From assembly GCF_003334335.1 (NCBI RefSeq), contig NZ_QOWQ01000075.1: a stretch of DNA of 6,510 bases; one strand, 5' to 3'. Below are positions 1 to 1,615 of this stretch, piece by piece; positions within the stretch are counted from its first letter, which is position 1, and each line of letters starts with the position of its first letter. The stretch is from Escherichia coli. Lineage in GTDB: Bacteria; Pseudomonadota; Gammaproteobacteria; Enterobacterales; Enterobacteriaceae. Position numbers and translations under genes: made by a program. The notes under the pieces were generated by a model, which made no database searches, was not told the DNA's origin, and was given only the letters and a program-made list of their open reading frames with translations.

Positions 1-591
1 ACCTTTGACGGTATTGCACAGAATATGGCAGCGATGCTGACCGGCAGCGAACAGAACTGGCGTGGTTTCACCCGTTCTGTGCTGTCCATGCTGACAGAGA
101 TTTTTCTGAAGCAGGCGATGGTGGGGATAGTCGGGAGTATCGGCAGCGCCATTGGCGGTGCTTTCGGTGGTGGTGCGTCTGCCTCCACGGGGACGGCCAT
201 TCAGGCTGCGGCGGCGAACTTCCATTTCGCGACCGGGGGATTTACGGGGACGGGGGGGAAATATGAACCTGCGGGGATTGTTCATCGCGGGGAGTTTGTC
301 TTCACGAAGGAGGCGACCAGCCGGATTGGCGTGGGAAATCTTTACCGGCTGATGCGCGGCTATGCCACCGGCGGTTATGTCGGTGGCACCGGAAGTCCGG
401 CGCAAATGCGGCGTTCAGAGGGTATCAGATTTGAGCAGAACAACAACGTGGTGATTCAGAACGACGGTACGAATGGTCTGCCAGGTCCACAGATGCTGAA
501 GGCAGTGTATGACATGGCCCGCAAGGGTGCCCGTGATGAAATTCAGGCACAGATGCGCGATGGTGGTCTGTTCTCCGGAGGTGGACGATGA
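1..591 (+). CDS. H: Tail tape measure protein, C-terminal portion (5'-partial; gene starts upstream of window)
   Basis: Frame 1 is open from base 1 (TFDGIAQNMAAML...) to TGA at 589-591, so the ATG at 25 in the ORF track is internal. Gly/Ala/Thr-rich C-terminus ending ...MLKAVYDMARKGARDEIQAQMRDGGLFSGGGR matches my recollection of the lambda gpH C-terminus. Stop overlaps the M start (ATGA at 588-591). Confidence 0.88.
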   Translation, partial: TFDGIAQNMAAMLTGSEQNWRGFTRSVLSMLTEIFLKQAMVGIVGSIGSAIGGAFGGGASASTGTAIQAAAANFHFATGGFTGTGGKYEPAGIVHRGEFVFTKEATSRIGVGNLYRLMRGYATGGYVGGTGSPAQMRRSEGIRFEQNNNVVIQNDGTNGLPGPQMLKAVYDMARKGARDEIQAQMRDGGLFSGGGR

Positions 592-917
592 AGACCTTCC
601 ACTGGAAAGTGAAACCCGGTATGGATGTGGCTTCAGCCCCTTCCGTCAGGAAAGTGCGCTTTGGTGATGGCTATTCCCAGCGAGCGCCTGCCGGGCTGAA
701 TGCCGACCTGAAAACGTACAGCGTGACGCTTTCTGTTCCCCGTTGGGAGGCCACGGCGCTTGAGTCGTTTCTGGCTGAGCACGGGGGCTGGAAATCCTTT
801 CTGTGGACGCCGCCTTATGAGTGGCGGCAGATAAAGGTGACCTGCGCAAAATGGTCGTCGCGGGTCAGTATGCTGCGTGTTGAGTTCAGCGCAGAGTTTG
901 AACAGGTGGTGAACTGA
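588..917 (+). CDS. M: Minor tail protein M (tail tip assembly)
   Basis: 109-aa ORF, same length as lambda gpM and near-identical to it as I recall (MKTF.WKVKPGMDVAS...SMLRVEFSAEFEQVVN). GGAGG at 577-581, 6 nt upstream of ATG 588. Start overlaps the H stop (ATGA); stop overlaps the L start. Confidence 0.95.
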   Translation: MKTFHWKVKPGMDVASAPSVRKVRFGDGYSQRAPAGLNADLKTYSVTLSVPRWEATALESFLAEHGGWKSFLWTPPYEWRQIKVTCAKWSSRVSMLRVEFSAEFEQVVN

Positions 918-1615
918 TGCAGGATATCCGGCAGGAAACACTGAATGAATGCACCCGTGCGGAGCAGTCGGCCAGCGTGGTGCTCTGGGAAATCGATCTG
1001 ACAGAGGTCGGTGGAGAACGTTATTTTTTCTGTAATGAGCAGAACGAAAAAGGTGAGCCGGTCACCTGGCAGGGGCGACAGTATCAGCCGTATCCCATTC
1101 AGGGGAGTGGTTTTGAACTGAATGGCAAAGGCACCAGTACGCGCCCCACGCTGACGGTTTCTAACCTGTACGGTATGGTCACCGGTATGGTGGAAGATAT
1201 GCAGAGTCTGGTCGGCGGAACGGTGGTCCGGCGTAAGGTTTACGCCCGTTTTCTGGATGCGGTGAACTTCGTCAACGGAAACAGTGACGCCGATCCGGAG
1301 CAGGAGGTGATCAGCCGCTGGCGCATCGAGCAGTGCAGCGAACTGAGCGCGGTGAGTGCCTCCTTTGTACTGTCCACGCCGACGGAAACGGATGGCGCTG
1401 TTTTTCCGGGACGTATCATGCTGGCCAACACCTGCACCTGGACCTATCGCGGTGATGAGTGCGGTTATCACGGTCCGGCAGTCGCGGATGAATATGACCA
1501 GCCGACGTCCGATATCACGAAGGATAAATGCAGCAAATGCCTGAGCGGCTGTAAGTTTCGCAATAACGTCGGCAACTTTGGCGGCTTCCTTTCCATTAAC
1601 AAACTTTCGCAGTAA
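917..1615 (+). CDS. L: Minor tail protein L (tail tip assembly, Fe-S cluster-binding C-terminal domain)
   Basis: 232-aa ORF, same length and essentially same sequence as lambda gpL as I recall. AGGTGG at 904-909, 7 nt before ATG 917. TGATG overlap with the M stop (915-919). C-terminal Cys cluster (C..C...CxxCxxxC) fits the reported [4Fe-4S] site of gpL-family proteins. Confidence 0.95.
   Translation: MQDIRQETLNECTRAEQSASVVLWEIDLTEVGGERYFFCNEQNEKGEPVTWQGRQYQPYPIQGSGFELNGKGTSTRPTLTVSNLYGMVTGMVEDMQSLVGGTVVRRKVYARFLDAVNFVNGNSDADPEQEVISRWRIEQCSELSAVSASFVLSTPTETDGAVFPGRIMLANTCTWTYRGDECGYHGPAVADEYDQPTSDITKDKCSKCLSGCKFRNNVGNFGGFLSINKLSQ

Follow-up and report, generated by a model that had tools for sequence, protein, structure and literature searches.

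Lambda-type H–M–L overlaps in the tail-tip genes of an Escherichia coli lambdoid prophage and their likely coupling by termination-reinitiation

Introduction

In a 6,510-nt stretch of Escherichia coli DNA (the whole stretch analysed, hereafter the window) the phage genes H, M and L follow one another without a gap, the stop codon of each upstream gene overlapping the start codon of the next. The question raised by this locus is whether translation of M and L depends on translation of the gene before it, or whether the overlaps are close packing only. The original prediction had described both junctions as translationally coupled, had called such coupling typical of tail assembly operons needing fixed stoichiometry, and had taken the junctions to show that this part of the module has no insertions.

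Overlaps of this kind are frequent. Same-strand gene pairs of E. coli are spaced most often at -4, next at -1 and -8, and 24% of pairs fall within -8 to +6 nt (PMC10666635). Overlaps are general to prokaryotic operons and are enriched among genes for heteromeric complexes (PMC10666635). In the lambda late operon, from nu1 to J, 9 of 18 junctions overlap, four by -4 and one by -1. The configuration is thus common in both E. coli and lambda, and two adjacent junctions of this type are not statistically remarkable. Nor is the arrangement specific to tail operons, being the commonest in prokaryotic operons generally.

Results

Gene identities and start codons

The three genes were assigned as follows.

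1..591, + strand: 3' end of the tape measure gene H; the frame enters from upstream of the window (ORF 25..591), the last residues are ...LFSGGGR and the stop is TGA at 589-591
588..917, + strand: gene M, distal tail protein of the tail tip, 109 aa; phrog_14 minor tail protein (4.3e-42, residues 1-108)
917..1615, + strand: gene L, tail tip hub protein, 232 aa; phrog_18 (2e-152) and TIGR01600 phage_tail_L

Only the last 188 residues of H lie in the window, the true H start being upstream of it. This part matched phrog_4346 (1.1e-111) and the tape measure family phrog_24 (3e-73), and its homology is to the C-terminal part of H. With 86% nucleotide identity to lambda H it is more diverged than M (94.8% nucleotide identity; 94.5% amino acid identity by tblastn) and L (98.1% nucleotide identity). 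In ORF order M stands directly after the tape measure gene and before the gene for gpL. L scored 331.2 bits against TIGR01600, above the curated equivalog cut-off of 70.75. Its residues C173, C182, C205 and C212 are invariant in one L alignment and nearly invariant in another; these conserved C-terminal cysteines we take to be the ligands of an iron-sulfur cluster.

Many lambdoid coliphages, with H, M, L and K annotated in the corresponding stretch, are 93-95.5% identical in DNA sequence to positions 1-1700 of the window; the overall identity of phage 21 over these positions is 94.6%. On one IMG/VR contig (L021) H, M and L are 100% identical to those of the window, and the neighbouring sequence was found in hundreds of complete E. 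coli genomes. Homology identifies the three proteins as lambda gpM, lambda gpL and the C-terminal part of lambda gpH, here in an E. coli lambda-like prophage, and the gene names first proposed are correct by PHROGs, by NCBIfam and by the 93-95% DNA identity to lambdoid phages.

Were M or L to begin at another codon, the overlaps would not be functional junctions. One such codon is the in-frame ATG at 621, residue 12 of M. Against this, residue 1 of M and the T-F-x-W motif that follows align across 17 sequences (M and 16 homologues), in neither frame does a start codon come between the preceding stop and 588 or 917, which both carry Shine-Dalgarno (SD) motifs, and the same M and L starts are annotated in lambda and phage 21. 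The start at 621 was rejected on the N-terminal conservation of M homologues, and the chance that either start is wrong is close to negligible.

Overlaps and ribosome-binding sites

Direct reading of the sequence, together with the ORF table, confirmed both overlaps and placed an SD motif within the last codons of each upstream gene, as had been predicted. The elements are listed here with the junction that follows L.

577-581, + strand: SD of M, GGAGG, inside the H codons GGA-GGT, with a 6-nt spacer to the ATG
588-591, + strand: H–M overlap ATGA; M start ATG 588-590, H stop TGA 589-591 (-4 overlap)
904-909, + strand: SD-like AGGTGG of L, inside the M codons CAG-GTG-GTG, with a 7-nt spacer to the ATG
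915-919, + strand: M–L overlap TGATG; M stop TGA 915-917, L start ATG 917-919, one base in common (-1 overlap)
1613-1622, + strand: L–K junction; TAA, a 4-nt gap and the K ATG at 1620

The duplex energy of the M SD with the 16S 3' end was -10.8 kcal/mol, equalled or beaten by only 0.5% of the 377 + strand ATG, GTG and TTG triplets in the window. The L SD is only moderate in strength at -7.2 kcal/mol, within the best 8% of the same triplets. The L–K junction is the third tightly packed junction in the chain, and no SD was detectable there by duplex energy (+0.7 kcal/mol); phage 21 also annotates K 4 nt after L.

The same genes, order and overlaps (-4, ATGA; -1, TGATG) are found in lambda NC_001416 (H 10542..13103, M 13100..13429, L 13429..14127). 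ATGA at 588-591 is identical to lambda 13100-13103, and TGATG at 915-919 to lambda 13427-13431. Differences from lambda are scattered substitutions only, two within 560-620 and none within 890-950, and the stretch from SD to start is identical at both junctions. In ±50 nt alignments the window, lambda and phage 21 agree at H–M from the SD through the start codon, and at M–L 101 of 101 columns are identical between the window and lambda. There is no indel relative to lambda between window positions 496 and 1612, which bears out, by comparison with lambda, the original statement that this part of the module has no insertions. Phage 21 (OL657228; CPT_21_16, CPT_21_17 and CPT_21_18) has an identical junction architecture with nothing differing at the junctions, and its record annotates ribosome-binding sites at places homologous to 577-582 and 904-907. 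The comparison with other lambdoid phages that had been proposed as a check therefore matches at lambda and phage 21. The junctions are the canonical lambda H/M and M/L boundaries, an ordinary, textbook arrangement that is already known.

RNA structure and transcription signals

A downstream ribosome-binding site can be locked in a hairpin and freed solely by ribosomes that translate the gene before it. In the minimum-energy fold of 548-628 the GGAGG does pair with CCUUCC just after the M start. Of 200 shuffled sequences 125 folded at least as stably (z = +0.41), the centroid structure retained only 3 of the GGAGG–CCUUCC pairs, and a natural variant changes ACCTTC to ACATTT with no compensating change in the SD. 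No comparable pairing was present at M–L (z = -0.05), and an Rfam scan of the whole window matched no family. The SD-sequestering hairpin was rejected, both junction folds being nothing beyond shuffled controls; unmasking of this kind is highly improbable here.

Lambda H, M and L belong to a single late transcript. A pattern scan for promoter-like and terminator-like sites found none within 100 nt of either junction of the window. The nearest matches fall within L, a weak promoter-like one (9-of-12; 998-1027) and a terminator-like one on the minus strand (1067-1051), and neither exceeds the level of shuffled sequence.

Conservation of the junctions

A survey covered 19 annotated phage records whose M homologues fall as low as about 30% in identity (hosts Escherichia, Serratia, Klebsiella, Moraxella, Burkholderia, Pseudomonas, Vibrio, Ralstonia, Rhizobium, Synechococcus and Aeromonas). 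The order tape measure, M, L was kept in 16. The M–L distance was -1 or -4 in 14 records and +8 to +13 in three; one junction was broken and one fell outside these classes. Among the +8 to +13 records is phi1026b, where M is followed by a gene that cannot be recognised as L. The broken junction is that of Moraxella Mcat15, where an opposite-strand gene follows M. Sixteen of the 19 have a tape measure–M distance within -8 to +5 nt. In Mcat15 it is +37, and Serratia phage Rovert and Klebsiella phage KLB29 have extra genes inserted. Since Rovert and KLB29 tolerate inserted genes at the tape measure–M boundary, the family does not require M to be coupled to H.

HK97/N15-type tail tip modules have the same order of tape measure, M, L and K with tight junctions. 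They differ from the window in a tape measure–M gap of +2 to +5 nt in place of an overlap, and in an M–L overlap of 4 nt (ATGA) rather than 1, the SD there being very weak (-2.5 kcal/mol). An SD as slight as this (-2.5 kcal/mol, almost none) accompanies many of the distant M–L junctions with a -4 overlap.

Close relatives were sampled as 80 IMG/VR loci retrieved through a 5-sequence L alignment (L at least 92% identical in protein sequence in all). TGATG was present in 78 of the 78 loci that contain the L start, the other two of the 80 ending before it, and was kept across 10 distinct junction contexts, including M alleles only 40-56% identical to the M of the window. H–M was always overlapping: 39 loci have ATGA, 32 a -8 type whose start codon is GTG, and four TAATG (-1). 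A GGAGG-type motif lay upstream in the -4 and -8 types, only GGAG being present in the single -1 type sequence, and all 13 distinct lambda-type H–M junction variants carried GGAGG. Because the overlaps are identical in lambda and phage 21, and because their tight form is kept in diverged relatives, alignment indicates that they are conserved rather than accidental.

Three of the loci contain irregular frames. In L022 (IMGVR_UViG_2534681774_000018, near position 1718) the M frame is closed by a stop 82 nt short of the L start, apparently a premature stop or a frameshift. The H frame as traced in L033 and L035 falls 154-235 nt short of M. Prophage decay or errors of assembly may account for these.

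Translational coupling

H, M and L are co-directional, lie in three different frames and overlap by -4 and -1, as coupled pairs do. The pairs of Huber et al. (2019, 2023) share the co-directional arrangement, the -4 or -1 overlap and the SD inside the upstream gene, and in both cases the products are subunits of one heteromeric assembly. In contrast to those pairs, dependence of M and L on upstream translation is something we infer, and the virion ratio is 3:6:3, not 1:1:1. Of 14 native overlapping pairs tested, five of them from E. coli, 13 were strictly coupled, the SD contributing to a degree that depended on the gene (PMC6728339). From a distance of about 20 nt onward, coupling breaks down (PMC10666635).

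Termination-reinitiation coupling at H–M and M–L is likely on this analysis. A ribosome terminating at the UGA of H, or at that of M, would sit directly on the next AUG. Pairing of the SD with the anti-SD would help, and the ribosome could re-initiate without leaving the mRNA, adding to whatever de novo initiation the SD supports. Synthesis of M and L would then probably track the upstream gene's translation, and the long late transcript would probably be left with no untranslated gap. The overlap arrangement alone would not set a 1:1:1 output. A literature search turned up neither an experiment on the H–M or M–L junctions nor measurements of the rates at which H, M and L are translated; a secondary analysis of lambda ribosome-profiling data is silent on coupling (PMC5737525). 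The coupling first stated outright is therefore kept as a plausible and likely mechanism, argued from E. coli reporter work on other -4/-1 pairs (PMC6728339, PMC10666635).

The same overlaps could be a by-product of packing, with M and L initiated mainly at their own SDs and with no upstream dependence. The M SD, among the strongest in the window and well spaced, could by independent initiation give most of M synthesis; neither junction has RNA structure beyond shuffled controls; and relatives show gaps of +2 to +13 nt or, ahead of M, whole extra genes and even a terminator annotation. The virion also needs twice as much gpM as gpH or gpL. However, the native -4/-1 pairs of E. coli that were tested are almost all strictly coupled (PMC6728339), and the L SD of the window is not strong. 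The distant M–L overlaps with almost no SD are poorly explained by independent initiation, an overlap kept where the SD is almost absent being the pattern expected if reinitiation, rather than de novo binding, drives L. Compaction as the whole explanation is accordingly rated unlikely, and compaction and coupling are not mutually exclusive. Coupling by termination-reinitiation stays the preferred reading.

The fixed-stoichiometry rationale for this coupling is weak. The lambda virion contains a hexamer ring of gpM, a trimer of gpL and a trimer of the gpH C-terminal helix (PMC10721106), a gpH:gpM:gpL ratio of 3:6:3. Equimolar output is thus not what the particle needs, and strict 1:1 coupling would not give this ratio.

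A possible mosaic boundary before L

Among the IMG/VR loci M is 40-100% identical to the M of the window. In four M-divergent relatives the final 20 nt of M were 70-95% identical to the window in nucleotide sequence, against 36-52% for the 80 nt of M before them; L stood at 60-96% over its first 50 nt and at 72-100% over the following 50. The lowest L identities are those of Stx2 phage 1717, whose L is itself diverged. A mosaic boundary thus appears about 20 nt upstream of the L start (window about 897-917, loci L020-L099). Tentatively, the last 20 nt or so of M, with the L SD and TGATG, may act as part of the L unit in recombination, the junction being a preferred mosaic boundary; this is a doubtful proposal. 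If it is true, the L initiation region stays intact whichever M allele sits upstream.

Genes downstream of L

K encodes 247 aa with a conserved N-terminus, and its start at 1620 is supported by phrog_30, which covers residues 1-247, and by a match of JAMM type that begins at residue 3. When window 1613-1770 was compared with lambda NC_001416 at about 14127-14280 (L002, 1628-1780), the lambda reference was found to lack one base at window position 1753 or so (GGAGGC-TATTTCC) relative to both the window and phage 21. Without this base the K frame of the lambda reference falls into two pieces, an ORF of 76 aa starting at 14133 and the annotated K of 199 aa starting at 14276. A literature search on a split lambda K gene found nothing relevant. 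Gene I is 83% identical to lambda in nucleotide sequence overall and encodes 213 aa against 223 aa in lambda, with a cluster of indels (2599-2638) in the central hydrophobic Gly/Ala-rich region.

The sole large insertion in the window relative to lambda lies between I and J (2899-3348), where it replaces 33 nt of lambda spacer. It is AT-rich (36% GC) and contains two features.

2975-3313: predicted lipoprotein ORF, 112 aa, lipobox LTG|C; phrog_914, function unknown
3337-3357: terminator-like hairpin after the lipoprotein ORF, the strongest in the window

The predicted lipoprotein had no match in Pfam, NCBIfam or PADLOC. Megablast of 50,697 phage records found no copy of the insertion at DNA level; of 5,426 complete E. 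coli genomes, 331 have it. Phage Fraca has a 31%-identical homologue of the lipoprotein between K and I. The insertion adjoins a J gene with a diverged 3' part. J is 94% identical to lambda over 3349-5876, blastn against lambda gave no match for 5877-6045, and identity is only 76% over 6046-6409, the GC content falling to about 49% in 5877-6409. The diverged 3' part of J suggests, from its sequence, a different receptor-binding end. A receptor-masking (superinfection exclusion) role for the lipoprotein would be a guess.

Discussion

The H/M and M/L junctions of the window are, with good confidence, canonical lambda-type tail-tip boundaries of an E. coli lambdoid prophage, at which we infer coupling by termination-reinitiation. 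Their significance is small, in that no open question becomes testable through them. For the prophage, they mean that it carries an intact lambda-like H–M–L block with correct gene starts, which helps annotation. For the family they add a small comparative data point: the M–L overlap class persists across very diverged M alleles.
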